A DNA stretch of 63,872 nucleotides, filler included, from Piedraia hortae CBS 480.64 (GCA_010093745.1; 4 parts of 4 records of this genome joined end to end with filler, not necessarily neighbours in it); one strand, 5' to 3'; shown: positions 25,142 through 55,624, counted from the first letter of the whole stretch. Notes: generated from the sequence alone by a model not told the origin. Numbers and translations are program-made.

Positions 25142-25241
25142 NNNNNNNNNNNNNNNNNNNNNNNNNNNNNNNNNNNNNNNNNNNNTTAATTAATTAANNN
25201 NNNNNNNNNNNNNNNNNNNNNNNNNNNNNNNNNNNNNNNNN
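25142..25241. other. Artificial contig spacer
   Basis: 100 bp: Ns around TTAATTAATTAA (stops in all six frames). Confidence 0.98.
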
Positions 25242-25359
25242 TGTGTCGGCTGGACCCCATGTCCTCGACACCATCTTCAATCCCTCTCTCCTCCCCGGCC
25301 CTTCGGCCGGGCAGGGCGCGCAAGCGCCCCTCACCGGCGCGCTTTTCGCGCGGCGGTGG
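25242..25359 (-). repeat. 118-bp triple-hairpin leader repeat, copy 1 (cut by the contig end)
   Basis: Identical to 28040-28157 except one base. Confidence 0.95.
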
Positions 25360-28039: not shown

Positions 28040-28157
28040 TGTGTCGGCTGGACCCCATGTCCTCGACACCATCTTCAATCCCTCTCTCCTCCCCGGCCCT
28101 TCGGCCGGGCAGGGCGCGCAAGCGCCCCTCACCGACGCGCTTTTCGCGCGGCGGTGG
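28040..28157 (-). promoter_or_regulatory. 118-bp triple-hairpin leader, copy 2, directly upstream of DUF736
   Basis: Hairpins CCCGGCC-CTTC-GGCCGGG, GGGCGC-GCAA-GCGCCC and CCG.CGCGC-TTTTC-GCGCG.CGG; regulatory role is inferred. Confidence 0.6.
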
Positions 28158-33484: not shown

Positions 33485-33591
33485 CTCTATGATGTCTCGA
33501 ATGAAGGTTATTTCGGGTTGGTCGGGTCACGTCTAGTCAGCGATAGACGCCCTGGTCGCCGTAACCGCGGCCCTCGATGTCGACTGGGCGG

Positions 33592-33879
33592 CTAAGCCAA
33601 CGAGGCAACGGCTCGGATCACCGAGACGGGCTGCAGGTGATGCGCGCCGATCACGTCTTCGACGCCGTAGCTGAGGCACTCTTCGAGCCAGATGACATAG
33701 CACGCGGCCTCTGCGAGTTCGGTGGCGAGAAGCTCGTCCATCATCGCGGCCTCGCGCGCCATCTGCTCAGGCAGGGCGTCCCAGTCGAGCGCGTCAAGAA
33801 ATCGGTCCCGCCGGCTGATGAAGCGGATCAGGCGGTTCTCGTCGGCCTTGGCGATCGCGATCGCCTGTTGAATGCGCAT
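33592..33879 (-). CDS. Hypothetical protein
   Basis: GAGGAG RBS; 95-aa ORF downstream of a leader motif. Confidence 0.7.
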   Translation of the reverse strand: MRIQQAIAIAKADENRLIRFISRRDRFLDALDWDALPEQMAREAAMMDELLATELAEAACYVIWLEECLSYGVEDVIGAHHLQPVSVIRAVASLA

Positions 33880-33941
33880 GGCTCGTCTCCTCTTGTGGAC
33901 ACGATTCCTGCTCCCCCTCCCCTTCCCGTCGGCACGACGGG

Positions 33942-34748
33942 TCAGGCTCCGAGCTGCTCACGCAGGATGTCGGACCTGATCGGATAGGCGAGACGCGGTA
34001 GCGCTCGGCCCGCGCGCCGCGCGCCGCGGGTGAGCTCGAAGCAGTAGGTGAAAAGGGGTGCCTGTCGCGCCGGGACCAGGATTTCTGCGCGACGGCATCG
34101 TTCGAGCCATTCGCGAAGGTGCTCGTCCGCCTGCGGCCTCGGGGCGCCGAGCCTCACCAGTTGATCGACGGCGCCCGCATGACCTGTCTCGAGGTTTCGA
34201 ATTTTGGACAAGGTGCGATCAGAGATCGTTTCCCCGGCGATGCGGAGCACCGTCCGCGGCCTCGTTCGCCCGCGATACGCCCCGGAGAGCGAGGCGTAGA
34301 CGCAGCCGCAGTGTCCGACCTGAGGGTCGGAGAAGCTGACGACGGACTCGATCACCGGCTTTGCCTGACGCAGCAGCCGGAAGGCCCAGGCGGCGAAATA
34401 GCTTTCCCCATTGGCGGCGACGGAGGGCAGGCAGAGCAGGCGTTGCAGCACGCAGCCGCGGGTTGGCTCGTCATAGCCGGTATGGCGCGTGATGACCGCG
34501 CCCGTCGCGGGCACTCCGAAGACAATGATGCCGTCGAGAGAGGAAGCGCCGCCCCGGCCTGGGCCGAATAGCCCGACGGCCAGCTGTGCGGCGGGATAGC
34601 GATTGAGATAGTGATGGTCTGCGATGAAGGCGCGAGCGGTGTCGTGCGCCACGACGTCGACTGCGTAGCGCCTCGGGTCGATGACGGTGTCGTCGGCCAC
34701 GAAGCGGCTGCGCCGGTCGCGCCAGCGTTGTGAACGGTCGGTAATCAT
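33942..34748 (-). CDS. Mom-like GNAT-fold DNA adenine modification protein
   Basis: FIADHHYL, VGLF, IVFGVP, LQRL, NGESYF, VVSFSDP.VGH.G.VY.S...Y.GRT follow the phage Mu Mom family pattern. Confidence 0.8.
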   Translation of the reverse strand: MITDRSQRWRDRRSRFVADDTVIDPRRYAVDVVAHDTARAFIADHHYLNRYPAAQLAVGLFGPGRGGASSLDGIIVFGVPATGAVITRHTGYDEPTRGCVLQRLLCLPSVAANGESYFAAWAFRLLRQAKPVIESVVSFSDPQVGHCGCVYASLSGAYRGRTRPRTVLRIAGETISDRTLSKIRNLETGHAGAVDQLVRLGAPRPQADEHLREWLERCRRAEILVPARQAPLFTYCFELTRGARRAGRALPRLAYPIRSDILREQLGA

Positions 34749-34760
34749 GGTGAGCCTCGC

Positions 34761-35771
34761 TCAGGCGGCGCGCTGGTGGAAGAGATCGGCCGCCCAGGAT
34801 TCGACCCAGTTGGCGGTGATCTGGTCATGATCGAGCTCGCCGGTCTCGATGAGTTCGCGGATCTGAGCGCGTGCATCAGCGATGGCCCGCTCCCATGGAT
34901 CATCGTCGCCGAGGGAACGCGCCTGGTGGTCGGCGGCCTCGGGCAGCGTGACCGGAGGGGCGAGCGCACGGCCGCACTGGCGTTGATACCATTGCTCCAT
35001 GTGCGAGGCGACCAGGCGATCGCTCTTCGCAACGCCGCGGCGAAGAGCGTCTCGTCGCGCCGCGACGCCGAAGGCCTGGCTGTCGATCGAGGCGATCCAG
35101 CGGGAGAACGGTGCCAGGTAGGGCAAGGCGTCCCCTTTGACGCCGAAGGCGTGGGCACGGACCCCGACCGGGAGCACGCGCGAGAGCCGTTCAACCACGG
35201 CGACGAGCCCCTCCGGGCCATGGATGACGCGTCGGCACATGCTTCCGATGCCGACAACGGTGCCCGGCAGGAGCATGCCCTCGATCGCCTCGAGGCAGCG
35301 GACGTAGTCGTCGGGCGTTCGGCCCTGCAGGACCGGCATGAAGCGATCCCGGATACCAAGGTCTCCAGCGCGGGCGAAACACTCGTGGTTGGTCGCAATC
35401 GTACGGGAGATCCTGTCGAGAACCTCTTCGCGGTGCGACGCGACGCCGTCCTCGCAGCAATAGTCGATCGAGGACACGCGCCGGAACGGGTACGAGGCGG
35501 CAAGCGCCATGTAGTCGGCTATCGACCACGGCAGACCGCCGTAGCGCACCATCATCGAGTAACCGGCGCTGTCGAGGTCGAGGCTGACGAGGCCGTGGGC
35601 GTTGTCGAGGGTAGCCGTGCGCCACCCCGCCCATTCGCGCCAGCCATCGGCCTTGCGCCAGCGCGACAAGCAGTTGGCGGAGATCAGCACCGGTGCCTGT
35701 AGGCGCCGCGCTGTTGCGAGAAGCGCACCATCGGCGAGGTGCGGCAGGCCCAGGATGATTTCGATCGTCAT
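34761..35771 (-). CDS. TGT/DpdA-like base-exchange (transglycosylase-fold) protein
   Basis: LDSAGY (TGT DSGG-like), IDYCCE, PVLQG, GIGSMCRR, HAFGVK, SIDSQA; ATGA overlap with the upstream gene. Confidence 0.75.
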   Translation of the reverse strand: MTIEIILGLPHLADGALLATARRLQAPVLISANCLSRWRKADGWREWAGWRTATLDNAHGLVSLDLDSAGYSMMVRYGGLPWSIADYMALAASYPFRRVSSIDYCCEDGVASHREEVLDRISRTIATNHECFARAGDLGIRDRFMPVLQGRTPDDYVRCLEAIEGMLLPGTVVGIGSMCRRVIHGPEGLVAVVERLSRVLPVGVRAHAFGVKGDALPYLAPFSRWIASIDSQAFGVAARRDALRRGVAKSDRLVASHMEQWYQRQCGRALAPPVTLPEAADHQARSLGDDDPWERAIADARAQIRELIETGELDHDQITANWVESWAADLFHQRAA

Positions 35772-36154
35772 GACGGCTCTCCCCGGTAGATGTCGGGGTA
35801 GCCGCTGATCGTCGTCAGCTTGCCTCCGGCGATCGCGACAGAGATGTTGCCGTGGAGCTCGAGGTGGCGATCGCCGCGACGGCGGATGTAGAAGTCGAGA
35901 AGGCCGCGCCCGTCCGGCGTTAACTCGACGCCGCGCGTGAAGGCTGTCCACGGCTCATAGTCGTCGAGATCGGTGTCCTGCCAGTCGGGATCGTCGCTGA
36001 TCAGCGCGAAGTTGATCGACGTTTCGCCTGACACAAGGCTCTGCCGACGCCCGACCTCGAGCATCACTTGCCCGACCCGTTCGAACTTGGCCTCACGCCG
36101 TGCGGCGTCGCGAATGGCCGCGATGTCTGCCGCAGAGGGGCGGAAGCGAGGCAT
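35768..36154 (-). CDS. Hypothetical protein
   Basis: Overlaps both neighbours (TGATG and ATGA). Confidence 0.75.
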   Translation of the reverse strand: MPRFRPSAADIAAIRDAARREAKFERVGQVMLEVGRRQSLVSGETSINFALISDDPDWQDTDLDDYEPWTAFTRGVELTPDGRGLLDFYIRRRGDRHLELHGNISVAIAGGKLTTISGYPDIYRGEPS

Positions 36155-36513
36155 CAAAGATCCTCCCGCAGCATGAGGGTTAGCACGCGGGCCGTGCGGC
36201 TGGCGTCGGCAGGATCTTCCGAACCCCATTCCAGCGCCGGATCATAATAGTCGATGCGGAAGAAGACCTCGGTGTCGTCGATGATGAAGGAGCCGCGATC
36301 GCGCTCCGGGCAGTCGGCAGCGAAGCTGTGCCGGCGAAGCTCCTGCAGCAGGCGCGCTTGGGCCACGGCCTCCGACGCGAGCGTGTCGGTCGATAGGGTG
36401 GCAAGGCACGTGCGCGTGACGGTGATGCGCGCGGTTCGATCGAGGCCCTGACGGCATCGGTCGTTTAGACGCGCGATCGTTTCGACGCGCGTCTCGGCAG
36501 CATTCTCGATCAT
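36154..36513 (-). CDS. DUF3768 family protein
   Basis: IARLNDRCR...ERDRGSF...FFRIDYYD...GSEDPAD...RVLTLML. Confidence 0.85.
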   Translation of the reverse strand: MIENAAETRVETIARLNDRCRQGLDRTARITVTRTCLATLSTDTLASEAVAQARLLQELRRHSFAADCPERDRGSFIIDDTEVFFRIDYYDPALEWGSEDPADASRTARVLTLMLREDL

Positions 36514-36549
36514 GGGTCGATCCTCGGTTCGTTCGATGGGCGGGGGGGA

Positions 36550-37485
36550 TCAGGCGGCCAGCGTGTCCGGGTGGCCGCGGCCTCGTTCGGCGAAGGCTAG
36601 GTGAAAGCGGTCGAGCCATTCGCCCATCTTCGGGCGCTCGCCGACGGGGATCGCAGCCGCGACGTCCTGGAAGCGGATGAGGTCGGTGGGAGCATCGCGG
36701 ACGATGCGATCGACTTCCTCGGCTCCCAGTAGACCCTCGGCCCGGATGAACGCGGTCATCGATCCGGGACGTGTCCTGGTCGACTTGCGCCATAGCCCTT
36801 CGACCGTATGGAGCCGGGGCGCGGCGCGTGCCTCCACCAGGACGATCAGTCGGAGGCACCATGGTGGAAGGCTGCGGATCTCGTCCGGCTTGTTCGCGAT
36901 GCACAGGATGCACGCCGACTTGGGTGGCACGGGCAGGCCTTCGGTCTCGATGCGCGACACGCATCGCGGGCGGTGCCATTGCCAGTCACGCAGCGGCGAT
37001 CGACACTCGTAGAGTGGGTCGTCGATCGTCAGCGCATGGTTGGCGCGCGCGGTGTCGCGGGGGCCAGCATCATAGCCGATCAGTCGGATGACCCGCTGGC
37101 CGCGGTCCCATGCCTCGACCGCAGGCTGCCACGTCTTGAGGAAAGCGTCCTGCGGGGCCTTCTTGTACTTGAGGCTGCATGACGATCCGCCAAGCGATTT
37201 GCTCGGCAAGGTCGCGTTCGTCAGGCACATTTCGAGGATTCCGAAGTACGGCGGCCAGTGCTTGAACCGCTTGGGCATGTAGGAGACGAGCTCGAACCGG
37301 ATGCCGCGGTCGCGCATCCAGGGGCGGATGATGTCGAGATAGTCGTAGGTTTCCGGCTTCTCGTTGCCGGTGTCCGCGCTGAGGACGAGATCAGGAGCCT
37401 GACCGCGGGCATGCAGCTCGATCAGCAGCGCTGTGCTGTCGACGCCTATCCCGTACGACAGCACGGACGGAGGGGGCGGCAGCAT
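36550..37485 (-). CDS. PP-loop / PAPS-reductase-like protein
   Basis: SYGIGVDS PP-loop variant, ADTGNEKPETY, CSLKYK, IGYDAG, PL..W.W.R..C, PPKSACILC. Confidence 0.8.
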   Translation of the reverse strand: MLPPPPSVLSYGIGVDSTALLIELHARGQAPDLVLSADTGNEKPETYDYLDIIRPWMRDRGIRFELVSYMPKRFKHWPPYFGILEMCLTNATLPSKSLGGSSCSLKYKKAPQDAFLKTWQPAVEAWDRGQRVIRLIGYDAGPRDTARANHALTIDDPLYECRSPLRDWQWHRPRCVSRIETEGLPVPPKSACILCIANKPDEIRSLPPWCLRLIVLVEARAAPRLHTVEGLWRKSTRTRPGSMTAFIRAEGLLGAEEVDRIVRDAPTDLIRFQDVAAAIPVGERPKMGEWLDRFHLAFAERGRGHPDTLAA

Positions 37486-37486
37486 G

Positions 37487-39181
37487 TCACGCGCCCTCCT
37501 CGTTGGTGTCGGTCGGCGGGGCGGCGCGCTCGACGATCTTCACCTCGAGACGCTCGCGGTTGATGACGACCGTCACGGTTCGGTCGGCAGGAACCATGAA
37601 ATAATGTCCCGACAGCTTGTCGCGGATGCGGCTCTCGAGCGCTGCATCGTCACCCTCGAGAAGGCCGATGATCCGCTCGGCCGCATCCGCCTGGAAGCGC
37701 TCTAGCTGAGTGTCATAGCTGTCGGCGTCGCTGTCGGAAGACGGCTCGAACGAGGCTCGCTCGAACAGATCAGCGACCGCGAGGGCGGTCCGGCTGCTCC
37801 CGCGGCACACGAAGATGGACGTCCCGTCGACCGAGTTGCAGGTCCATTCGTCCGGCGCGAAGGCCACATCGGCAGCGGTCGAGGCCTCGATCGACGCGCC
37901 CGCGTGTGAGATGGTGGCCTCCAGCGTGATCGCGTCGACCCATCCGTCCTCGGCCTCGGCAGGCGCATCGAGCGTAGCCGAAACCACGAAGTCGAGGTCG
38001 CCCTGCACGATGCGGAACCGCAGGTCGTCCACGCGGGCGAGGACGTCGTACCAGCGATAACCGGTGAAGGCGTCCTGAGCCATGACAAGGGGCCCGCCGA
38101 ACGGGTTGTGGGTGGCGATCGCCTCCGCAGCCGGTTGTGCGACCAGCGCGTCGAAGTCGGACATGACCACCATCGCAGTGTCGGTGGTGCGCTCGCCCGA
38201 GGCATAGTTCCGACCGCTATCGGCCGCGGGTGCGCTCCATGCGAAGAGGTATGCCGCCGCTTCCGGCAGATCGACACCGAGGTCGACCGCCTCGCGCCAG
38301 CGTTCCGCCGACAGCCGGTGCGATCCTTGCGCGGCGATCGCGCGGTAGATGGCGACGCTCACCGCCCGGCGCAGTTCTGTCAGGCCGTCGTTCTCGATCG
38401 CCTCCTTGCGTGCCGGGAGCACGAGCTGGATCTGTGGCGCGTCGAAGATATCGACGCGCGCGACCCAGTGATGGCCTCGGTCGACCTCCTGGACGTCCGG
38501 CAGCTTGCAGGGGATCGTCAGCCCATGGAAGTTCAAGCGTCCGTCATGGGTCGAGTAGGATGACGGATGTTTCTGGAAGATCCCGATGCGGGTTCCGTTC
38601 CACTCCTCGATATGAACTGCGTCCGCCAGCCAGTCCTCGCGCGGCAGTGCCTTGCCGTCGAGCGTCACCGGCAGTGGATAGTGTTTTGCCGCCTTGGCGA
38701 CGTCGTCAGCGAGCGTCTTCAGCCAGCTGTCCGGCACCTTGATGGTGATGGCGGTGCCGCGCGAGATCGGGTCGGGCGAGATCGCGATCGGCCGGCTCGT
38801 TTCCCAGGCCGAGGCGGGGATGTGTGCCATCCATCCCTGGCGATCAGGACGGGAGAAGGAACGCACCATCACGTCTCGTCCGGCGAGGCTGAAAACTCCC
38901 ATGCCCGCAGGATCTTCCATGCGGCGCGTCTCGTCGGACCATCCCGATCGACCCAGCGTCACGATCGAGGCGGGATCGTCGATCCCATGCCCGTCGTCGA
39001 TGATGTGGAGGAGCGTATCGGGACCACCCGACTGGATCAGCACGGCAACCGCAAGAGCGCCGGCGCGCCGAGCATTCTGGAAGAGCTCGGTCACCACGTC
39101 GAAGGCGGTGTTGTTGAACAGCCGGGTGACCTTCGCGATTGTCTCGGGTGCGACCGCGGTCGCGATGGTGGCGGGGATCAT
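37487..39181 (-). CDS. GHKL (HATPase) ATP-binding protein
   Basis: Bergerat-fold motifs ELFQNARRAGA, DDGHGI, AGMGVFSL, GTAI. Confidence 0.85.
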   Translation of the reverse strand: MIPATIATAVAPETIAKVTRLFNNTAFDVVTELFQNARRAGALAVAVLIQSGGPDTLLHIIDDGHGIDDPASIVTLGRSGWSDETRRMEDPAGMGVFSLAGRDVMVRSFSRPDRQGWMAHIPASAWETSRPIAISPDPISRGTAITIKVPDSWLKTLADDVAKAAKHYPLPVTLDGKALPREDWLADAVHIEEWNGTRIGIFQKHPSSYSTHDGRLNFHGLTIPCKLPDVQEVDRGHHWVARVDIFDAPQIQLVLPARKEAIENDGLTELRRAVSVAIYRAIAAQGSHRLSAERWREAVDLGVDLPEAAAYLFAWSAPAADSGRNYASGERTTDTAMVVMSDFDALVAQPAAEAIATHNPFGGPLVMAQDAFTGYRWYDVLARVDDLRFRIVQGDLDFVVSATLDAPAEAEDGWVDAITLEATISHAGASIEASTAADVAFAPDEWTCNSVDGTSIFVCRGSSRTALAVADLFERASFEPSSDSDADSYDTQLERFQADAAERIIGLLEGDDAALESRIRDKLSGHYFMVPADRTVTVVINRERLEVKIVERAAPPTDTNEEGA

Positions 39182-39261
39182 GATGCGCTCCTCGTGGCTG
39201 GCGTGTCCTTCACGCCCGCCCGGCCCCTCCCCCTCCCCTTCGATCCAGGGTCGTTCCGCGC

Positions 39262-40482
39262 CTATGGCTGCGGAGCAAGGGCGAGGATATCCTGCAGCGT
39301 CGGGGCAGACTCGCGACGCGGACGTCGGCTGAATTTGAGGCCCTGCTTCTCGGCGTACTTGTGGACGCCCGCGTAGTTGCGCCCCAAGGCGACGACGAGG
39401 TCAGGCAAGGCGATGCCATGAGCGTGCGCGAGCGCGAGCGCGTGGCATTCGTCATCGCTCCAAGGTCGATGGTAGCCGTGAACCAATCCTAAGATATTCG
39501 CGCGAGTGAAGAGGGAGGCCTTGGTACGGCCCATCTTGTTGGCGAGATCCGCCATCGGCATCTTGCCATAGTGTTCACGCAGCGTTGCAACGTCGCCCTC
39601 GGTCCAGACGGGACCGCCTCAGAAGCCGTCCCGATTAACGTGAGTACCGCGCAGACCGAGGTATTCGGCCCGCCACTTGATCGAGTGGGTGGTGCGGCCG
39701 AGCCGGGCTATGAGCGGCGTGCGGCTCGTTCCGTCGGCATAGACGCGGGTCAACAGAGCGTCCTCGTCCGGAGTCCATGGACGGCCCCAACCGCGGCCGT
39801 AGCCTAGCTTGCGCAGGTGCGGGCCGAACCCTGCCTTCGTGCGCCGGGGAAAGCCCTCGGCAACCATCATCTCTATGATATCGACGTAGCGATGGCCCTC
39901 AGCCGCGAGTGTCAGCGCGCGGGCCGCCTCGGCCTCGGTCCATCCTGGCGGGTTGTTCGGGTGTCGCAGCCCAAGGTTGCTCGCGTGCGTGATCGTGCCC
40001 GAGAGCGGGCGACCGATCAGCACTGCGATCTGTGCGACCGGTATCGCGCGCTCGAAGCCGGCGCGCAGCTGAGCATCCTCCCACTCGGTCCAGCGTGGGG
40101 CATTGCCTTCGGTAAGGCCGAGAAGGCCGGCACGAGCATAAACGGCGGTGCAGGCTCGTCCGAGATCCTGTGCGAGCGCGGATGCGGGACGTGAGCCGTA
40201 CTCGCGTGTCAGCCAGGCGTCCTCGGCCTCGGACCAGTTCCGCTGCGAGTTTCGGCGCAACCCCAAGGTCACGATCTTGTCGCGGACGCCGTGGATGCGC
40301 CGGCCGATCGCTGAAGCGATGTCGTCTATCGCGATGTCGTCGCGAAACAGGCGCTCCAGCGTTGCGACCTCGTCGGGCATCCAGGCATCGCCACGGTATG
40401 CCATCTCGCGAAGCCGGCCTGTCGGCGCCGTTCGTGCCGGACAGGCGACGAGCTCGACGATATCGGGCGCCAGGTCGGTCAT
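39262..40482 (-). pseudogene. Seven-repeat Myb/HTH-like protein interrupted by one in-frame TGA (39619-39621)
   Basis: Reading through TGA gives ...RDGF*GGPVWTEGDVATLREHYGKMPMADLA... in the same frame; seven W(T/S)xxE(D)xxL...GR...LGL-type units. Confidence 0.8.
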
Positions 40483-41687
40483 AGGGCCACCACTGCGACG
40501 TCGCTGAGGCGGGCACGCAGACGCGCATGGAGACGCGCAATGCGGTCGTCGCCCTTGGGCATCGTATCGACGGCAGTGATCGCCGACAGGAGGTTGAGCG
40601 CCCGATCGGTTCGCTCCGCATCTAGCGACAGGTGTCTTGCGAGATCGCGCGCCGTGCTGGCGTTCGGAGAAATGCGTTTGAGTGCCTCGACGATCGCGGC
40701 AGCATCGGTAGCGGCGGGATCAAGGAGGAAGGCGTCCAGCGCGCGCGTGCCCTTGAGCGCGATCGCAGGGCCGTGGTCTGCCACCTCGGCAAGCCCGGCG
40801 AGGTCGAGTAACCGAGCCGCCTCGGTCGCGTCGACAGAGGCCGCGGCGCGCAGCTCGGGGGTTTTTCCAATATGCTCGGTGATCGTCGGATCGATGTGGG
40901 CGAGGCAGGGTGTCGCCGACAGGGCCGGTCCCATCGCGAAGAAGTCGCCAGGGACGAGCGTGCGGAGCGCATCGGCCTCCTTGGCTGAGAAGCCGAGAAG
41001 ATCGGCTACTCGCGCGATGTCGCGATCGAAGACGTTGAGGCCCACGAGGACGTTTTGGAGTTCGGAAACCACGGAGGTCGACAGCTTGGCGAGCCGTTGG
41101 GTGGCGATTACGGGCGCCAGCCCACGCTTACGGCCGCGAGCGCACAGATCGGTGAGTGTCGCGACGCCGAGGCGTCGCGCTTCCGCGTCTCGAGCGGACC
41201 CGGCGACGTGTGGCGCGAGGAGGTGTCCCTCGTCGATGCAGACAAGGACGGTGTGATCCCAGTCCTCGCGCGGCGCGCCGATGAGGCCGGCGAAGAAGGC
41301 TGCCGCCTTGATGATGCGCTGGTCGGGATCGAGGTCGGTCAGGTCGATGTGGATCGACAGCCGATGATGTCGGCTTCGCGCGGCCGCGGCGGTTAGGCCA
41401 TCGGCGGTCAGTTCGACCGCGCGGATCGTGGTGGCACCGATGTGACGGGCGAGGTTCTCGAACTCGCCCTCCGGGTCGACGATCGCGATCGTCGTGTAGT
41501 CGAACGCTTCTTCAATGATCCGGCGCAGCGTTCGGCTCTTTCCCGCACCCGAGCTGCCCTGGATGAGCAGGCGCCCGGCAAGAAGTCGATCGAGATCAAG
41601 GTGGAGTGCGCCGCTCGAATGGTGGCCCAGCGGTACGCGATTGTCTGCGGCCTCGGGGAGCGGCCTGATGGGGGTGACGCAGGTCAT
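40479..41687 (-). CDS. HerA/FtsK-superfamily ATPase with possible C-terminal winged helix
   Basis: GSSGAGKS, DPEGEF, VCIDEGH, RGRKRG, ATQR; AAGGA RBS. Confidence 0.88.
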   Translation of the reverse strand: MTCVTPIRPLPEAADNRVPLGHHSSGALHLDLDRLLAGRLLIQGSSGAGKSRTLRRIIEEAFDYTTIAIVDPEGEFENLARHIGATTIRAVELTADGLTAAAARSRHHRLSIHIDLTDLDPDQRIIKAAAFFAGLIGAPREDWDHTVLVCIDEGHLLAPHVAGSARDAEARRLGVATLTDLCARGRKRGLAPVIATQRLAKLSTSVVSELQNVLVGLNVFDRDIARVADLLGFSAKEADALRTLVPGDFFAMGPALSATPCLAHIDPTITEHIGKTPELRAAASVDATEAARLLDLAGLAEVADHGPAIALKGTRALDAFLLDPAATDAAAIVEALKRISPNASTARDLARHLSLDAERTDRALNLLSAITAVDTMPKGDDRIARLHARLRARLSDVAVVAL

Positions 41688-41725
41688 AGCGGCATCCTTG
41701 TTCTGGCGTCGTATGGTTTGGGGTG

Positions 41726-42370
41726 TCAGGTCAGGGCGGCGACCTGCTTGGTGATCGGCGCCGTGCTTGCGACCCGCTCTGCCGAGAGCGTGTCGAAGGT
41801 TTCGGGCATGACCCGAGCGTCGTAGCGTGCCTTGTCGACGAGGCCGTAGATGGGCTCGCCCTCGTGGCGCGCGAAGCCGAGCGCATCCACGCTGGCGACA
41901 CGGCGAAAGACGCATCCGACCTTGCCGTCAGGAACCCAGTCCGCCCATGACCCGGACGCCGAGACGCTCTCGTACTGCCCAATGATGGCGGTGTAGGCGG
42001 CGCGACGGCGGACGACGTGGCTTTCTCCGATCGTCACCTCCTCGCCGGTCAAGGCCGTCCAGCGATCCGGATGCCAGCATCGCACCGACCGACGGGCGTT
42101 CTCGACCTGAAGAACGATGCCGGGCACGGGCAAGCGGCGGAACTCGCTCGCAAAACCGTAGAGAACCAGCGCATAGTCGACGTCCTCCTCGTAGAATGGG
42201 TCCGCTAGACGAAGTGCCTCGGGCATCGCGGCTTGACGTTCATCGGAGAGGACGTAGCCGCCATGGCTCGGCGTCGAGACGCGCCAGATGCCGTGAAGAA
42301 CCTGGTCGGCGCGATCGGGTGTTCCCCATGGCGTTGTGTCGGGCCGGGGGCTCGGCTGGAAGCGGGTCAT
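41726..42370 (-). CDS. Conserved plasmid-type protein (DUF7007-like)
   Basis: TPWG...GIWRVSTPSHGGY...FYEED pattern. Confidence 0.65.
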   Translation of the reverse strand: MTRFQPSPRPDTTPWGTPDRADQVLHGIWRVSTPSHGGYVLSDERQAAMPEALRLADPFYEEDVDYALVLYGFASEFRRLPVPGIVLQVENARRSVRCWHPDRWTALTGEEVTIGESHVVRRRAAYTAIIGQYESVSASGSWADWVPDGKVGCVFRRVASVDALGFARHEGEPIYGLVDKARYDARVMPETFDTLSAERVASTAPITKQVAALT

Positions 42371-47609: not shown

Positions 47610-47709
47610 NNNNNNNNNNNNNNNNNNNNNNNNNNNNNNNNNNNNNNNNNNNNTTAATTAATTAANNNNNNNNNNNNNNNNNNNNNNNNNNNNNNNNNNN
47701 NNNNNNNNN
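47610..47709. other. Artificial contig spacer
   Basis: Ns around TTAATTAATTAA. Confidence 0.98.
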
Positions 47710-47722
47710 AAAAAAAAAAAAG

Positions 47723-49096
47723 GCTTCCAGGGCGTCCTGTAGCGGCTGCGTCGTCCACTGACCGGCACGCGGAAGACGTTCATCAGGGATGGGAGTGTTC
47801 TCTTGGACCGCTCCACCTCTTCGCCTGGTGACTTTAGACCAAGGCCTGTCCAAGGCGCAGGTAAGAGCGAAACAATCGCGAAGCCTCACGGCCACGGCGG
47901 TAGATGGCGTCGAACGTGTTGGCAAAGGATGCGCCGGCCGCATTTGAGTGGTATCGATTGGCCGTGACGTCTCCGTGGTTGCGCTGGCGGTTGGCATCCA
48001 TTACTTCCTCGTTTGGCTCCTCCTCATGAGCCTTGTCGTCGATGTCAAAGTCATTCCGCACCTGCTGGACGAAAAGGGCCTTGACGACCCCGACCGGGCG
48101 CGCGCCTCGCGCATCTCCGACGACACCAGCTTGACGTTGTCGGCTAAAGGCAGCTCGATATCGCCGTAGTATATTGGCGACAGCTCCGAATCTCCCGTCA
48201 CCTCGTGGCCACCGACATCTCCTCTGGCGACGCCCCAAAGGTAGAGACGGTAGCGCAAGATGTGCCACATGGGCGTTTGCTTTCCCCTGGCGCATGTACG
48301 GAGAGCAAACTTGGCTGATCCTCTCCACAAGGTCCTTGTCCTCTTGTGCGGCGTCACATTCGTCGTCGTCGCTAGTAGTTTCCCTCGCTGCCTTGCCGAA
48401 GATCAGCAGCTGTGTGACCCAGACACACACCGAGAGACCTCAGGTTGATGTCGCTTGCTTTTCCCCACGTCCTCTTCTTCTCTGAGACGGCATGAAGGGC
48501 AAAAACGAGACGACGAGAGACTCGAACTCGTCGTGATCAACGGGGCAGGTTATTGCCGCGCTCCAAAACTCTAGGAGGGCGTCTTGAATGGCCTGAACGT
48601 CGTTGGTCTCGTCGTCCTTGGCTGCCACGGCCGCGTCTCTGGTCATCGGTAATCTTCCAACCGACTTGGGCACTGGTGTCGCCATATTTGCTCGATACGA
48701 AATCGAAGACCTTATCCCCGATAAATGTACCGGCGGCAGAGGGCCAAGAAGCTCTTCGCCACGCTCACGAGGGCCAGGTCTTCTCATCCAGCCCGGGCTC
48801 AAACAGCGAAACTTCACTACGCTCATCGACGTGGGTGTCTTGGAGATGCCCGAGCTCTTTTTGAATCTGGTAGGAGAGCCCGAAGCCATCATTCCCGCGG
48901 AAACAGCACTGATGGTTCGCCCGACACAACCTCTCAAATGCGTCGTACATGACGTCCAGGATTTCGTCCTTCCCCCAACGGGGAACGTGGATGGCGGCTG
49001 CGCACTCAGATTTCAGACACCCGCAGAGGGGCGTATCTCACCCGAGGTGGTGGATCCAGGGAATCGCCTCTGTCTTCGACGGCTGGGTTGCTCCTC
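47723..49096 (-). pseudogene. Frameshifted fungal gene relic, possibly of the telomere-linked RecQ helicase family (non-helicase region)
   Basis: Broken frames with ALLEFWSAAI...DEFESLVVSFL, VTQLLIF, PMWHILRYRLY; family call from memory of the pattern only. Confidence 0.35.
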
Positions 49097-50026
49097 NNNN
49101 NNNNNNNNNNNNNNNNNNNNNNNNNNNNNNNNNNNNNNNNNNNNNNNNNNNNNNNNNNNNNNNNNNNNNNNNNNNNNNNNNNNNNNNNNNNNNNNNNNNN
49201 NNNNNNNNNNNNNNNNNNNNNNNNNNNNNNNNNNNNNNNNNNNNNNNNNNNNNNNNNNNNNNNNNNNNNNNNNNNNNNNNNNNNNNNNNNNNNNNNNNNN
49301 NNNNNNNNNNNNNNNNNNNNNNNNNNNNNNNNNNNNNNNNNNNNNNNNNNNNNNNNNNNNNNNNNNNNNNNNNNNNNNNNNNNNNNNNNNNNNNNNNNNN
49401 NNNNNNNNNNNNNNNNNNNNNNNNNNNNNNNNNNNNNNNNNNNNNNNNNNNNNNNNNNNNNNNNNNNNNNNNNNNNNNNNNNNNNNNNNNNNNNNNNNNN
49501 NNNNNNNNNNNNNNNNNNNNNNNNNNNNNNNNNNNNNNNNNNNNNNNNNNNNNNNNNNNNNNNNNNNNNNNNNNNNNNNNNNNNNNNNNNNNNNNNNNNN
49601 NNNNNNNNNNNNNNNNNNNNNNNNNNNNNNNNNNNNNNNNNNNNNNNNNNNNNNNNNNNNNNNNNNNNNNNNNNNNNNNNNNNNNNNNNNNNNNNNNNNN
49701 NNNNNNNNNNNNNNNNNNNNNNNNNNNNNNNNNNNNNNNNNNNNNNNNNNNNNNNNNNNNNNNNNNNNNNNNNNNNNNNNNNNNNNNNNNNNNNNNNNNN
49801 NNNNNNNNNNNNNNNNNNNNNNNNNNNNNNNNNNNNNNNNNNNNNNNNNNNNNNNNNNNNNNNNNNNNNNNNNNNNNNNNNNNNNNNNNNNNNNNNNNNN
49901 NNNNNNNNNNNNNNNNNNNNNNNNNNNNNNNNNNNNNNNNNNNNNNNNNNNNNNNNNNNNNNNNNNNNNNNNNNNNNNNNNNNNNNNNNNNNNNNNNNNN
50001 NNNNNNNNNNNNNNNNNNNNNNNNNN
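49097..50026. other. Scaffold gap (930 N)
   Basis: Pure N run without linker. Confidence 0.99.
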
Positions 50027-50766
50027 CTCCCCCAACATTTTCCGCTCCAAATCGGCCAAGTCCTGCACACTGACAATCTCCGCCAATCTCCCATCCACCC
50101 GTTTTACATCCCATCGCCTTCAAACACACTTTCTGCAGCGCACCATTTTAGTTACATCTACATGCCCCCTTTCTCCTTTTCAGATGTTTCAATCTTCGTG
50201 CGATGCTGATACAGCAGATGGCCTTGAGGGCATGATGTCACCTCCCCGCTCCACACGTTCCCCGAGCCAGTCAGAGTAAAGCGCATTGACAGGTGACTCC
50301 CATCGAGGGCAAGAGTGTGAAGATGAAGCATGAAATGTCTTCAGTCTATATGTGGATTGAATGGCAATGATGTGCAGAAATCAGAGGGCTAAGCGCCGTG
50401 GCGTTGGACGTTGGGCGGCTAACAGCCTCTGCTGGGAGGCGCCACCTCTCAAAAGCTCATGATTGGGCAGAGATATATATGCTAGATAGAGAATCAAAAG
50501 CCTGTGTGCGCGTAGTGAGATTGATGCTATCTAATTCGAGCCAAATGCATTTGCGGAGGGACAGTTGGGCTCTGACCTCAGGAAGTCGTGTCTCGATTGG
50601 GATCGTGGGACGGGCGAGCACGCAGCATTGGGGGTATTGTATTATCAGTATCGATAAGCAGATCGAGAGATTGAGAACGCAGAGCAGATAGCCTTCCCCT
50701 CCTTGCTACACATACACACATCCCCTACAGCATCTACAGAAAACATTATCCAACCCATTACACATC

Positions 50767-52332
50767 CTAGCCAAGCATCCCCCTCAACACCTCCGCCCCC
50801 GGCCCCGTGACCGCATCCCTCAACTCCCTAATCCCCACAGCCGACGAAACCCTCTTCTCCTCTAACACCCACTTCCTCGGCGACGCAACCCTCCCCGGCG
50901 TCCTCGACGGGGTAATCGGCCCGTAACCCTCCCCGAACTCCACAAGCCCTAACCCCTCAAGGCTAGACACAACCTCCCCAAACTCCGAACTCGTAAGCGG
51001 CTGTAGAAGTCTCTCCTCCCTACACAACCCACAATAAGTCGCATACAACTTCGCAACCGTAGGTGCCCTTGAATCACTCTTCTTCGGCGTTGACGGTCCC
51101 TTCAAAACCACTGTCCCCCCACCCTCGCCTTTCACAAGGGCGCACAACACCGCCTTCTGCTGCAGATTCAGTGCCGCAAGACGCTGGATGGAGTTATTGC
51201 TGAGCACCTGCGCCGTAACGCGAGCGACATGCGCAATCGTAACCTTTGGCGCTGTAGTTGGACTCAGTCTCGCGAGGTTTGTGTTCTCAGAGAGGGGTTT
51301 TGTAGGCGAGGCTTCTAGCTCTGCTTGGGCGGCTTCTTGCTCTACCAGGTCCACGGCGCGTTTGCAAATGTCAAAGGCTTTGCGGAGGTCGCCGGTTTGG
51401 GAGGAGACTTTTTTGGCGCAAAAGGTTATGGCTGCTGGGTGAAAGAAGGGGAGGTCTTGGTTTGGGGAGAGGGTGCTGAGCTTTGAGGTCAGGATGGATG
51501 CGATTTGAGGTGCGGTGTATGGCATAACGGGAAGGAGTTGGGGCCGGAGGTTGCGCGATTTTAGACGGGGAAGGAAGCGGTCAGTGAGGTCCAGAGCGTT
51601 GGCGATTGAGAGGAGGATTAAGCCTGATTTGGGGCTGAGAGACCATTCGAATAGACGGTAGAGGAGTTCCTGGTCGAAACTGATGAGGTGGTCGACTTCG
51701 TCTAGGATTACGAGGTATTTCTTGGTGGAGGTGAAGGCTTTCTTGAAATTGGCGATTTCCAGGTCAAAGGTGAGCTTTTGTTCGAGCTCTTTTGCTGAGT
51801 GGACGCTCATGCAGTTGATTATGGTCAGGCTAACACGAGCTTTGTATGTTTCGATGGTTTCGTTGACAAGGGCACTTTTGCCAGTGCCGGGAGGTCCAGA
51901 GATGTAGAGACAGCCGCCGGATTTGGATGACAAGGCGGAATCGAGAAAGGTTGACAGTTGGCTGCGCTCTTCATCCCGTCCAAATAGACATCCAGTGGAG
52001 CACCGTGAGAACAGCTGACGCGCTTGATGGTAGACGGCTGCCGTGCGACGGGAGGAGGTCACAGGCGTCTTGATTAACCGGCTGGGCGACGGCGATGAGA
52101 CGGCCAGAACGCGTCGTCGCGGAGTGACGATGACTTTGTCGCTGCGCTTCTTCCGCGGACTTTCATCTTCGTAAACCTGGATGACCTCTGGCGGTCGGGC
52201 GTCGATGGCCTCGAGCGGCGCGAACGGATTGTCATCCTCATCTGGCGCATTCAGGACGATGCGGCGCTTAGAACGCAGATTGGGAAGTTGCGTTGAAGAG
52301 CGGGTGCGCTTTCCTAGAACTGTGCCCGCCAT
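50767..52332 (-). CDS. CDC6: Cell division control protein Cdc6/Cdc18
   Basis: LYISGPPGTGKS, INCMS, ILDEVD, IANALDLTDRFLPRLK, GDLRKAFDIC, C-terminal winged helix, S/TP CDK sites. Confidence 0.96.
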   Translation of the reverse strand: MAGTVLGKRTRSSTQLPNLRSKRRIVLNAPDEDDNPFAPLEAIDARPPEVIQVYEDESPRKKRSDKVIVTPRRRVLAVSSPSPSRLIKTPVTSSRRTAAVYHQARQLFSRCSTGCLFGRDEERSQLSTFLDSALSSKSGGCLYISGPPGTGKSALVNETIETYKARVSLTIINCMSVHSAKELEQKLTFDLEIANFKKAFTSTKKYLVILDEVDHLISFDQELLYRLFEWSLSPKSGLILLSIANALDLTDRFLPRLKSRNLRPQLLPVMPYTAPQIASILTSKLSTLSPNQDLPFFHPAAITFCAKKVSSQTGDLRKAFDICKRAVDLVEQEAAQAELEASPTKPLSENTNLARLSPTTAPKVTIAHVARVTAQVLSNNSIQRLAALNLQQKAVLCALVKGEGGGTVVLKGPSTPKKSDSRAPTVAKLYATYCGLCREERLLQPLTSSEFGEVVSSLEGLGLVEFGEGYGPITPSRTPGRVASPRKWVLEEKRVSSAVGIRELRDAVTGPGAEVLRGMLG

Positions 52333-52374
52333 AGTGGTGGTTCTTTGGAAATTCCTGGACGCTGGTGGAGGAAG

Positions 52375-52455
52375 GCGCGACCGCGTCGCGTTCGGCGCGT
52401 GGTAACGCGTGGCGCGACGCGTCTAATTTCGGCGAAATCTCGGAACTGCGCGTCA
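52375..52455. promoter_or_regulatory. MCB (MluI cell-cycle box) cluster upstream of CDC6
   Basis: ACGCGT at 52405-52410 and 52417-52422 plus several CGCG cores within about 125 bp of the start codon. Confidence 0.75.
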
Positions 52456-52463
52456 CATTACAT

Positions 52464-52547
52464 CACATTCACATTCACATTCACATTCACATTCACATTC
52501 ACATTCACATTCACATTCACATTCACATTCACATTCACATTCACATT
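52464..52547. repeat. (CACATT)n hexanucleotide microsatellite
   Basis: About 14 perfect units. Confidence 0.97.
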
Positions 52548-52664
52548 GTCAGCCTGACCAGCTGACGAACTGTCAACGCATGTCAACTTGTCCGCTGCTG
52601 TATCGCCAACCATGAACCACCAGCACATATACCCATCGTAGCAACTCACTCCAACACCATAGAG

Positions 52665-53750
52665 ATGTCCGCGTCATACAAATGTCCACCTCGTAACCTT
52701 AAAAGCCATTCACATGAACGTCTCCCTCCTCCACCTCCAAGGGGCCTTTCTCCCAGCCCAACCCCAACAATGCCGTCCCAAGACCCCATGCTAGCCGACC
52801 TCCCGCCTCCTCGTCGCCCACGCCCCTCCATCTCCCGCCCACCCACCACGCCCTGGGAATCCTACAAACGCGGCGGCCCTCGGTACCCGGAAAGCCTCTA
52901 CTCTCTCCTCCTGACCCACCACCGCCAACACGGCAACAACTCCTTCGCCCTCTCCCTCGACTTTGGTCGCGGCAGCGGTATCTCCTCCCCAACCCTCTCC
53001 AACCACTTCTCCCACACCCACATCTGCGAAGCCTCCCTCCCCGGCCTCGCCGCAACCCGTAAAGCCCTCTCCAAAACTCCTCCCAAGCACGGCGGATACA
53101 CCTTCTCCCCAACGCCCTCATCCTCCCTCACGGACTGCTGCTCCGACTCCTCCGTCGACTTTGCAATCATAACCGAATCCGCGCATCTGGAGAAAGATCC
53201 CGATGCCATGGTCCGTAGCGCTGCGGCCGTGCTTGCTCCCGGGGGGACGCTAGCGATGATCACGCACCGTCCCCTGGCACATGTGGTGGGAAACAAGGAG
53301 GCTGCTGCCGCTGTGGAGAGGCTTTTCAAAGCGTGGGGGACTACGCCGTGGGAGGTTGTGTGTGGGACTGATCAGGAGGCGTGGAAACGTTTCGGGGCGG
53401 GGTTGGATTTTGTGGAGCTTCCACAGGAGCTTTTTAGGGATGTGAGAAGGGTGGCGATTAACGAGGGGGAGTTTTGTTTTCCGGGTGTGGATGCTGCGCA
53501 GAGTAGGATCAGGGAGGGTGAGGAGAGAGTTGTGCTTCATGAGAGGGATGCGTTTGGGAAAGGGTGGAGGCAAGAGGTTGGGTGGGAGGGTTTGAGGAGC
53601 AGGATTGCCATGCTAAGCGCGGAGGGGGTTTTGGAAGGCCTGGAGGGACATCTAAAGGAGGTGCAGGAGGTTATCGAACGGACTAGTCCCACGGGTGTGA
53701 ATGTGCTGTTGGAGTGGGCTGTTGTTGTGGTGCTTGCGACGAGGAGGTAA
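52665..53750 (+). CDS. Class I SAM-dependent methyltransferase-like protein
   Basis: Y...PRYPESLY, LDFGRGSG (degenerate motif I), SSVDF, LAPGGTLA. Confidence 0.7.
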   Translation: MSASYKCPPRNLKSHSHERLPPPPPRGLSPSPTPTMPSQDPMLADLPPPRRPRPSISRPPTTPWESYKRGGPRYPESLYSLLLTHHRQHGNNSFALSLDFGRGSGISSPTLSNHFSHTHICEASLPGLAATRKALSKTPPKHGGYTFSPTPSSSLTDCCSDSSVDFAIITESAHLEKDPDAMVRSAAAVLAPGGTLAMITHRPLAHVVGNKEAAAAVERLFKAWGTTPWEVVCGTDQEAWKRFGAGLDFVELPQELFRDVRRVAINEGEFCFPGVDAAQSRIREGEERVVLHERDAFGKGWRQEVGWEGLRSRIAMLSAEGVLEGLEGHLKEVQEVIERTSPTGVNVLLEWAVVVVLATRR

Positions 53751-54123
53751 GGTGGGGGATTGTACGGAATGTGGATGTAGTTGATGGGTCTGGCGAAGGG
53801 TTGTATCGAGGAATGCGCTTCACCTAGGTGCCTACAGATCTGGGGAGCGTGGTATGGGACCTGATGATTCATTATCTGCTATGTTCAGACTTGACGGTGA
53901 ATGCGTATATAGGTGACAATGCCTTGTTTTCGCGTCATGGTGATTCGGAGCCGAATGAATTTTGACAAATCGATGAATAGCCTTCTGCCCTCCATTGCCT
54001 CTAGTGTGCGAATTCAATCAAGGGACTGGAATCAATAACAAAAGACAAGTATGAATCGCAAAGTAAAAGCACAGCAACTAAGCCAAGCTCGTCGAGTAAA
54101 CTGAAAACGAAGACTGCTTATTC

Positions 54124-55158
54124 TCACACGGAATCAAAAGTCCCCTCTCGACTTGAGTAAGTCCTCCAGACATTTGAGTATAGGATGCAAGCAATGAGAA
54201 CAGAAAGCGGAGGAGACGCGATGGACGATGGCTGTTGTGTGGATTCGATAGACACAAGGACCTCGTCGAGCAACTCCTTGGTTTTGACGGCAGACAGTTT
54301 CCTGTTCAGCCCGCATTCTTCCACCAGCTATCGGCAGTGCTTGCTACGGCGGCCACGCTAATCGTGGCCTCTTCACCGTGACCCGCTTCCCAGATTGCAT
54401 GGAGCTCACTACCTCCAGTGCCGAAATACTGAGCGACGGCGGAGCGAACGCAAGACAGCCGGTTAACCCCTGGCGCATCTGCAAAGCGGTCCACATAGGC
54501 GCGATCGGACGTGGAGATGATTCTTTCACGGAATAACTCAGCATTCGTCTTGAAGCCACCCAGGTTGGCCCAGATGCAGTCGGTTGCCGCTTGATGGACG
54601 CTCTTGGCCGCATCTATGTCGCAGTCAGCGCCAATGAACGCCGCCAACGCATCCTGGAGGTGGGCAAGAAGCTATCGGCGAGCTGGACCCTTTGCAGCGA
54701 TAACAGATGCTTCGTTGAGTCAGGCGATGACGTGAGTGAGGATCTGGGTGATGTCCTTTGCATCACCAAACGACACACCACGCAAGGGGTGGAATCTTGG
54801 GATGATGGGAGCATCCGGCCCAACAAGAAGCTGATGGACCTCGCAGAATTGCTCATCAGGGACCGATGCGAGGAAGCCCTTGGTCCTTTAGCGGGTTCGT
54901 CCAGGTCACTTCCAGAAGAGCTCATCCATTTGCTGGGATACGGGATGACCATCCTTGTCACAAGCCTTGACAAGCTTGCTCCAGTCTACCAGGCCAACAT
55001 GCCGGGTTTCGTCCACTGGGAAGGCTAGAAGGACGTCCAGGATGCGGTCCACAGTTTGCGCCCCAGAGGTGGTCCACCTTGAGCCCGGCCATGGCTTGGA
55101 AGTAGTATAGATGAAACTCTTCCTCCCCAAGGCGCGTGGCACACCATCTGGTGGCCAT
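54124..55158 (-). pseudogene. Unidentified gene relic
   Basis: Protein-like minus-strand fragments separated by stops and frameshifts; no family recognised. Confidence 0.3.
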
Positions 55159-55524
55159 GTCCTTTAGGCCTTCAATGTAGAAGGACAGCCTTCAAGAACT
55201 GCCCCAGGGACACAGCCAAACCCGCAAGATATGATGTATCATAAATTCCCGGGGTTATATGATATTGATCGAATTTTATATAATATTGCGCTTGGGCAAC
55301 CTAATATTATAGTGATACTCCTTGAGGTATCATGTGCATATTTCCTGGTATCTCGCTGCAACGTTCAATCATATACTACGATGACGTTCCCAGGAATGTG
55401 ATGAGAATGCTTGCAGAAGTATCATGATAATGTAGATATGTAGCTCTCGTGGGTGAGAGTGCACAGCGACCCGAAGAGGACGGAGCGATAGACGGAATCA
55501 GGGACAGGAAAGATGTAGATGTAT

Positions 55525-55624
55525 NNNNNNNNNNNNNNNNNNNNNNNNNNNNNNNNNNNNNNNNNNNNTTAATTAATTAANNNNNNNNNNNNNNNNNNNN
55601 NNNNNNNNNNNNNNNNNNNNNNNN
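55525..55624. other. Artificial contig spacer
   Basis: Ns around TTAATTAATTAA. Confidence 0.98.

Follow-up and report, generated by a model that had tools for sequence, protein, structure and literature searches.

A six-gene plasmid operon of DpdA-family, Mom-family and PP-loop/DUF3768 genes as a candidate stand-alone anti-restriction DNA modification system

We analyzed a 63,872-nucleotide (nt) stretch of DNA (hereafter, the window) from the assembly of Piedraia hortae CBS 480.64 (GCA_010093745.1), with a focus on an operon predicted to modify DNA. The operon lies on a bacterial contig (contig 2, positions 25242-47609, 22.4 kb, ~66% GC) that shares 97.9% identity with plasmid p1 (MOBF) of Sphingomonas sp. 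NY01. It comprises six open reading frames on the minus strand, all co-oriented, at 33942-39181. In gene order, they encode a candidate GHKL-type ATPase (564 aa, 37487..39181), a PAPS-reductase-like PP-loop ATP pyrophosphatase with four conserved cysteines (311 aa, 36550..37485), a DUF3768 protein (119 aa, 36154..36513), a hypothetical protein that is a facultative insert (128 aa, 35768..36154), a homologue of the DpdA-family DNA guanine transglycosylases (336 aa, 34761..35771), and a homologue of the Mom-family adenine-modifying enzymes (268 aa, 33942..34748). With translation taken to start at the second ATG in the fourth gene and at an internal ATG in the fifth, the first three genes are spaced by gaps of 1 and 36 nt, the third and fourth overlap by 1 nt and the fourth and fifth by 4 nt, and 12 nt separate the fifth from the sixth. 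A preliminary description had reported six co-oriented genes with gaps or overlaps of at most 36 nt, bracketed by copies of a leader motif, and both points were borne out. The motif copies (GAAGGGGAGGGGGAG) are exact matches on the gene strand, one at 39227..39241, 45 nt before the GHKL start codon, and the other at 33911..33925, past the Mom stop codon and upstream of the next gene (33592-33879). RefSeq places the start codons of the six NY01 plasmid genes identically except in GHKL, which it makes 29 codons shorter; we retained the long form because homologues at 32-44% identity align from its residue 1 or 2. The six frames were accepted as the coding ones given the GC content at their third codon positions (0.77-0.82).

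The product of the last gene is a solid member of the Mom family as judged from its sequence, with a score of 80.7 bits to Pfam PF25680 (cut-off 27.1) and a further match to PHROG 1384. Residues 29-184 could be aligned to phage Mu Mom (PDB 8bv8; E 3.4e-5), and H46, Y47, R103, S116, D141 and Y151 align with H48, Y49, R101, S114, D139 and Y149 of the Mu protein, all six being kept (the solved 8bv8 chain is numbered one higher, and has an alanine at the place of S114). As reported for Mu Mom, alanine substitution at each of these six positions impaired DNA modification, and five of the six mutants also lost acetyl-CoA or iron binding, R101A having lost neither (PMC7261163).

Membership of the fifth gene product in the DpdA family is likewise solid. 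It matches Pfam PF23859 at 52.3 bits (cut-off 27), as do at least 120 homologues, all of those listed, several of which are named DpdA family by NCBI or UniRef. An AlphaFold2 (AF2) model based on an alignment of 30 relatives reached a pLDDT of 91, and its top Foldseek match in the PDB was the DpdA preQ0 insertase 7ui4 (E 3.1e-8, TM 0.47/0.39), followed by bacterial tRNA-guanine transglycosylases (TGTs, TM up to 0.58). The Mom and TGT assignments proposed in the preliminary description were thereby supported, with 8bv8 and 7ui4 as the respective matches. Four residues are invariant in 30 family members, namely D67 (in DSAGY), D103, Q149 and D230. Their spacing matches that of Asp95/Phe99, Asp130, His181 and Asp256 described for the DpdA of S. 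Montevideo (PMC10164549), and the same positions match the DSGGYQ, IQQG and MFDCV motifs in the Tgt of a sphingomonad genome (G001). The DpdA-like gene itself was found at 100% identity in G001 (contig C4), and in 6 of the 301 sampled genomes of the order around it. The chromosome of G001 encodes QueC (236 bits) as well as Tgt, so preQ0 would be available to a solitary DpdA. A phage DpdA by itself put dPreQ0 into the DNA of E. coli, according to Table 1 of the corresponding study (PMC6884629).

The PP-loop protein was also modelled with AF2 (pLDDT 90). Over residues 2-204, VIA-align placed the model closest to a PAPS reductase (7rge, Z 12.6), followed by YcfA (Z 11.2), Cap9 (Z 10.9) and NcsA (Z 10.8). 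A total of 28 chains had a Z of at least 8, and among the matches listed nearly all were of PP-loop or PAPS-reductase type; the C-terminal 100 residues were structurally unmatched. The predicted structure confirmed a PAPS-reductase-like fold, and the protein also matched PHROG 424 (E 6.5e-20). The Pfam PAPS_reduct model scored 17.2 bits, under its cut-off of 22.5, and was matched at E ≤0.01 by 17 of 44 family members; searches of PDB sequences with the single protein and with a profile returned nothing. In the family, for which 2002 representatives were retrieved at E ≤0.001, the invariant columns include C103, K108, C192 and C195, and those of G12, G14 and S17 (the GxGxDS motif) and C175 are nearly invariant (≥90%). 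The conservation of C103, C175, C192 and C195 suggests a metal or iron-sulfur (Fe-S) site. Membership in the DndC family, which the preliminary description had named as an example of PAPS-reductase-like proteins in DNA modification, was not upheld, since none of the 44 family members matched the NCBIfam models of DndC or SspD, and the match to the PADLOC model of SspD was weak (17.9 bits, E 4.9e-4) and confined to the N-terminus. A QueC-like role was set aside as well, given a Z of 8.1 for QueC against 12.6 for the PAPS reductase and the frequent occurrence of the gene without DpdA. The neighbouring DUF3768 protein matched Pfam PF12599 at 62.4 bits (cut-off 25), and its Atlas neighbours were all DUF3768 clusters. 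A complex prediction for the PP-loop and DUF3768 proteins scored 0.00, which, as it was run without controls, says nothing either way.

Several side observations concern the PP-loop gene. Contigs from the public runs X1, X11 and X12, each of a different study, break at its codon 192/193 (36909/36910), and the foreign sequence beyond the break is the same on the lower side in X1, X11 and X12, and on the upper side in X1 and X11. Based on these breaks, a PP-loop variant with an insertion or rearrangement appears to circulate. The gene is intact in the window and in public run X19, and PP-loop genes are split or unannotated in several PLSDB plasmids. An intein at this position was set aside because the loose sequence ends with an in-frame stop codon. 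Among 20 long PP-loop homologues scanned, four carry a LAGLIDADG_3 domain (an intein-like insert), and two giant ones (1718 and 2459 aa) have an InPase pyrophosphatase domain (P0293, P0334, P0356, P0361, P0304 and P0309).

The first gene product is a candidate GHKL ATPase, as suggested by sub-threshold matches and motifs. Its scores to Pfam HATPase_c_3 (18.3 bits) and HATPase_c (15.8 bits) are both below cut-off, its match to the NCBIfam model of the MutL N-terminus has an E of 1e-3, and HATPase_c_3 was found in 22-24% of the members of its Atlas clusters. In a weak alignment with the MutL ATPase domain (E 0.16), ELFQN is paired with ELVEN and DDGHGI with DNGSGI, so that E-x3-N and DxGxG are kept. 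The gene names given in the preliminary description thus stand for DpdA, Mom and DUF3768 by Pfam thresholds and for the PP-loop protein by its model and PHROG 424, and the GHKL name remains that of a candidate. The 128-aa protein matched phrog_19710 (E 4.4e-25), a family with no assigned function, and the phage contexts of PP-loop and 128-aa homologues (KPP23, PARCL1pr) were uninformative.

To describe the distribution of these genes we searched PLSDB and species-representative genomes. In PLSDB, 78 records matched the operon DNA; with few exceptions these are sphingomonad plasmids, and coverage of the operon was at least 80% in five of the records. By tblastn, the PP-loop protein was detected in 130 records, DUF3768 in 128, DpdA in 115, Mom in 86, GHKL in 67, and the 128-aa protein in 4. 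Among the top 60 rows for each protein (161 records in all), PP-loop and DUF3768 shared 40 records and were adjacent in 32, GHKL and PP-loop shared 23 and were adjacent in 11, and DpdA and Mom shared 26 and were adjacent in 5. PP-loop relatives in species-representative genomes numbered 403, and locus architectures were compared for the best 80 of them. DUF3768 lies directly downstream of the PP-loop gene (gap ≤500 nt) in 73 of the 80 loci. The order GHKL, PP-loop, DUF3768, DpdA, Mom was found in 19 loci, with a DpdA-Mom gap of at most 26 nt in 15 of them and a 2.8-kb insert in the other 4, and the 128-aa gene is present in 6 of these 19. Other arrangements include Mom, PP-loop, DUF3768 in this order (16 loci), the PP-loop/DUF3768 pair with GHKL in either order (11 loci), and the pair with none of Mom, DpdA and GHKL in the 7 kb to each side (23 loci). 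In Rhizorhabdus plasmid p2, DpdA adjoins a PRTRC ParB-family gene, with Mom, PP-loop and DUF3768 located ~8 kb further on. The genes are thus shuffled, separable modules with one fixed pair (PP-loop/DUF3768), and not an obligate unit. The survey for co-conserved neighbours proposed in the preliminary description thus singled out this pair, and GHKL, Mom and DpdA come and go.

A PP-loop homologue (~39% identity over residues 8-203) was also noticed in the TOL plasmid pWW0 (NC_003350.1, 12857-13948) and in many Pseudomonas plasmids. In pWW0, its block of co-oriented genes also encodes an orphan cytosine methyltransferase, a RecX-like protein and a single-stranded DNA-binding protein (SSB). Copies of the operon that are 98-100% identical occur in assemblies labelled Arthrobacter and Aurantimonas (the latter a metagenome-assembled genome, MAG), and a Pseudoxanthomonas MAG has an 80% identical one. 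In 22 public runs from 12 studies, half or more of the sampled 31-base words of the stretch examined were present. Such near-identical copies across labels and runs could reflect either a wide spread or a frequent contaminant or associate.

The plasmid context was examined in NY01 p1, where the operon is at 60.6-65.8 kb within a run of mostly co-oriented genes. The order in this run is ParB, a zincin (ArdC-like), a thermonuclease, DUF87, the operon, DUF736, SSB (76.2 kb), SLOG, a type IV coupling protein (T4CP, 81.7 kb) and a MobF relaxase (84.2 kb), with the genes from T4CP to MobF spanning 81.7-87.3 kb. As nearly all genes of this run are on one strand, the operon points towards the relaxase genes. 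Orphan methyltransferases, SSBs and anti-defence genes in a common orientation have been described as overrepresented in leading regions (Samuel et al. 2024, PMC11541004), and the NY01 gene order resembles the layout reported for such anti-defence islands. No restriction partner was found, in agreement with the preliminary description. Of the 24 other proteins of the contig, 23 had no PADLOC match and the DUF87 ATPase matched only HerA/mad8-like models; for the six operon proteins, the weak SspD match, to a modification component, was the only one. Searches with Pfam and PADLOC of the 24 other contig proteins and the examined NY01 annotation likewise recovered no DpdB, DpdC, DpdD-K or Dnd/Ssp restriction part.

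On the basis of the gene arrangement, the assigned families and folds, the conserved catalytic residues, the distribution as modules and the plasmid surroundings, all shown here, we consider it reasonably probable that the operon provides a stacked, stand-alone anti-restriction modification of the plasmid's own DNA. As such, the six genes would be polycistronic cargo of a sphingomonad MOBF megaplasmid, placed in its establishment (leading-region-like) part, and would comprise three separable modules whose modification of the plasmid DNA keeps it from being cut by the restriction enzymes of new hosts. In the first module, the solitary DpdA-family transglycosylase would replace guanine in the DNA by a 7-deazaguanine that the host makes, in the simplest case preQ0, with Asp230 forming the covalent intermediate and Asp67 serving as acid/base. 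In the second, the Mom-family enzyme would use acetyl-CoA and iron to turn adenine into N6-methylcarbamoyl-adenine (ncm6A), the reaction proposed for Mu Mom. The third, the PAPS-reductase-like PP-loop ATPase with DUF3768, here preceded by the GHKL ATPase, may carry out an ATP-dependent (adenylating) nucleic-acid modification, possibly via the Cys4 metal or Fe-S site. Since a cognate nuclease is not linked, the set would act as camouflage and not as a restriction-modification system. The stand-alone camouflage of the preliminary description is therefore favoured, and of its up to three chemistries two, those of DpdA and Mom, stand by homology, and that of PP-loop/DUF3768/GHKL is a proposal. It is a tentative and rather unlikely extension that the PP-loop (Cys4), DUF3768 and GHKL proteins form a third DNA-modification machine, similar in make-up to Dnd/Ssp and from an unrelated family, that would install a new mark such as a thio- or amino-substituted base or backbone position.

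A number of points weigh against this anti-restriction reading. Bacterial DpdA is reported to require the ParB-like ATPase DpdB (PMC10164549), which by the published count accompanies dpdA in 92% of genomes, and no dpdB is adjacent to the DpdA-like gene. The family is far from the solved DpdA and TGT proteins, as searches of PDB sequences with the single DpdA-like protein and its profile gave nothing significant, and a CxCxxC...H zinc motif is not evident in the protein. The proposed active-site equivalence of D67, D103 and D230 draws on motifs and on a weak profile alignment with the G001 Tgt (hhalign, E 0.48, 61 columns, Q149 to GV211 stretch). In work on phage 9g, dPreQ0 alone gave no protection against EcoRI (PMC6884629). 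Artificially expressed Mom is described as toxic in a review, so a constitutive Mom on a plasmid would need control, and none was identified here. The placement in a leading region would follow from the NY01 gene order, and the shares of locus architectures are not population frequencies, because the best 80 of the 403 relatives lean towards close relatives of the operon. Finally, we infer the substrates, products and timing of the modifications and the protection itself, the products being predicted from homology.

Three other explanations were weighed against stand-alone camouflage. All six genes could act in one pathway towards a single compound base, in which the PP-loop protein amidates or finishes the product of Mom or DpdA, and GHKL and DUF3768 are accessory. 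The tight coupling with overlapping stop and start codons and the inheritance of the ordered five-gene block as a unit in 19 of the 80 loci would fit such a pathway, as would the position of Mom directly upstream of PP-loop/DUF3768 in 18 loci (15 with gaps of 188-1079 nt). Moreover, the PP-loop enzymes QueC and NAD synthetase amidate carboxylates, and the Mom route as proposed ends in an amidation step to which no enzyme is assigned (PMC7261163). However, the PP-loop/DUF3768 pair does without Mom, DpdA and GHKL in more than a quarter of the loci (23 of 80), DpdA and Mom are seldom adjacent in the plasmids that share them (5 of 26), and the closest fold is that of PAPS reductase rather than QueC. 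In addition, Mu Mom was reported to work without a phage partner (PMC7261163), and phage DpdA sufficed in E. coli (PMC6884629). With the genes occurring in many subsets and orders elsewhere, the compound-base pathway, which the preliminary description had also offered, is disfavoured and appears improbable.

It is similarly hard to credit that the operon is the modification arm of a Dpd-like or Dnd/Ssp-like defence system, with the restriction arm elsewhere on the plasmid, that guards the host from phages. DpdA is known as the signature gene of the Dpd restriction-modification island, the modification cores of Dnd and Ssp are likewise summarized in a review as a PAPS-reductase-like protein, an ATPase and a small protein, the PP-loop protein has its weak match to SspD, and the DUF87 ATPase upstream matches the HerA/mad8 defence models. 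Against this, the surrounding genes are those of transfer and establishment, no Dpd, Dnd or Ssp restriction part was found in the 22-kb contig or the examined NY01 annotation, and the DndC and SspD NCBIfam models matched no member of the PP-loop family. We also give little weight to the possibility that some or all of the enzymes act on targets other than DNA (tRNA, other RNA or nucleotide pools), which would aid establishment or counter-defence without camouflage. The structural neighbours include the tRNA enzymes TGT, TtuA, NcsA, TilS and ThiI as well as Cap9 and YcfA, whose targets are protein or nucleotides, and the substrate assigned to the third module is a proposal. Nevertheless, the best family and fold matches of two of the enzymes are to the DNA-acting DpdA and Mom and not to RNA-acting relatives, G001 already has its own Tgt, and the plasmid context is rich in DNA-handling genes. 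Distribution and context thus weaken the rivals of the anti-restriction reading.

The leader motif recurs beyond the two copies that bracket the operon. A looser form of it was found 6 times on the gene strand and not on the opposite strand of contig 2, and 32 times versus 0 in the 80 related loci. As a purine-rich motif (CCGAAGGG..GGGGAGG), it occurs on the minus strand at 25284, 27273, 28082, 29131, 32090, 33911, 39227 and 42402, and it lies ~20-70 nt upstream of likely start codons in most gene groups of contig 2. An Rfam search of contig 2, the leader motif included, gave no matches at E ≤1, and scans of 33500-39700 for sigma-70 promoters and intrinsic terminators gave no sites. Four leader regions were folded, with z-scores from -0.47 to -2.95, and a structure common to all of them was not found. 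One public run recorded as RNA (X12) had contigs over all 30 bins of the stretch examined, with 13 of 14 pieces at ≥99% identity; as contigs of an RNA library do not demonstrate transcription, this run does not show it for the operon.

The window consists of four contigs, joined by linkers (N44-TTAATTAATTAA-N44) at 25142-25241, 47610-47709 and 55525-55624. Contigs 1 (1-25141) and 3 (47710-55524) have ~52% GC and carry eukaryote-type genes, for a condensin subunit Cnd2 (820 bits), a PEX1-like AAA protein, a Cdc6/ORC-like protein, Aa_trans and a Na/Ca exchanger, which indicates a mixed assembly, part eukaryote and part sphingomonad-like bacterium. Positions 49097-50026 are a run of 930 N. The other genes of contig 2 are typical of alphaproteobacterial plasmids, with Pfam matches to DUF736, DUF7007, DUF6927, a thermonuclease and the DUF87/HerA-like ATPase. 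A 118-nt direct repeat, 99% identical, is found at the start of this contig (25242-25359) and upstream of the DUF736 gene (28040-28157), and probably caused the assembly break, as NY01 p1 carries two DUF736 genes. Directly upstream of the operon are genes for proteins of 99 aa (39262-39561) and 287 aa (39619-40482), which have a repeated module in common, with tblastn cross-matches at ~30% identity and a weak Myb-like match. The DUF87/HerA-like ATPase gene (40479-41915), whose product matched mad8 (47 bits) and HerA in PADLOC, is kept upstream of the PP-loop gene in many loci, and in many related loci it precedes that gene together with the 99-aa and 287-aa genes.

Comparison with known systems shows which parts of the operon are familiar. 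The Mom-like protein shares with phage Mu Mom (8bv8) the Pfam family, the six residues defined by mutation, and presumably the role, a broad protection of mobile-element DNA from restriction. It differs in being borne by a conjugative-type plasmid and not a phage, in its length (268 aa versus 232 residues in the solved chain) with an unrelated C-terminal part, and in being embedded among other modifiers; a Com-like control was not identified, and its activity here is a prediction. The DpdA-like protein resembles the solitary DpdA of phages 9g and CAjan and the DpdA of S. Montevideo in its Pfam family, its best structural match (7ui4) and its Asp/Gln spacing. As with the phage proteins, linked restriction genes are absent, and it would draw on host preQ0. 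Unlike the phage and S. Montevideo proteins, it is very divergent and plasmid-borne, and is accompanied by neither DpdB nor DpdC nor genes for preQ0 or G+ synthesis. With the orphan methyltransferases and anti-restriction genes described for leading regions (PMC11541004), the operon has in common a location as co-oriented cargo between SSB and ArdC-like genes, near the relaxase, and a presumed protection of incoming plasmid DNA; in contrast to the methylation reported there, hypermodification (deazaguanine, ncm6A and a further mark) is predicted here. The third module is comparable, by analogy, to the Dnd/Ssp cores, which also combine a PP-loop protein of PAPS-reductase fold and conserved cysteines with an ATPase and a small protein, the one here being of ~120 aa. 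Its ATPase is of a different class (GHKL), however, a cysteine desulfurase is not linked, and DUF3768 is without known resemblance to DndE or SspB.

The single genes are not new, as NCBI and UniRef already name the DpdA-like protein DpdA family. The plasmid operon and the PP-loop/DUF3768 module, on the other hand, are undescribed. Among the titles and abstracts listed by our searches, we found no published description of an operon with DpdA and Mom on a plasmid or of this set with a PAPS-reductase-like protein, and a literature search returned no paper on DUF3768. The words Mom, queuine, deazaguanine, PAPS and DUF736 do not occur in the main text of PMC11541004, whose supplementary tables could list these families, and two deazaguanine papers, PMC6884629 among them, do not use the word "conjugative" in their main text.

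DNA hypermodification is an established means of escaping restriction in phages. To our knowledge, the tools of conjugative plasmids are orphan methyltransferases and inhibitor proteins, and we know of no reconstitution of Mom chemistry in vitro. If the anti-restriction reading is correct, phage-style base camouflage would extend to plasmid transfer, and the hosts of these plasmids would be natural hosts for studying Mom chemistry. Should the more doubtful third machine also be real, plasmids with the full operon would carry three non-methyl DNA modifications, a general master key against restriction in conjugation. The reading would further point to a widespread, uncharacterised PP-loop/DUF3768 pair, with 403 relatives in species-representative genomes and 130 PLSDB plasmids, pWW0 included.

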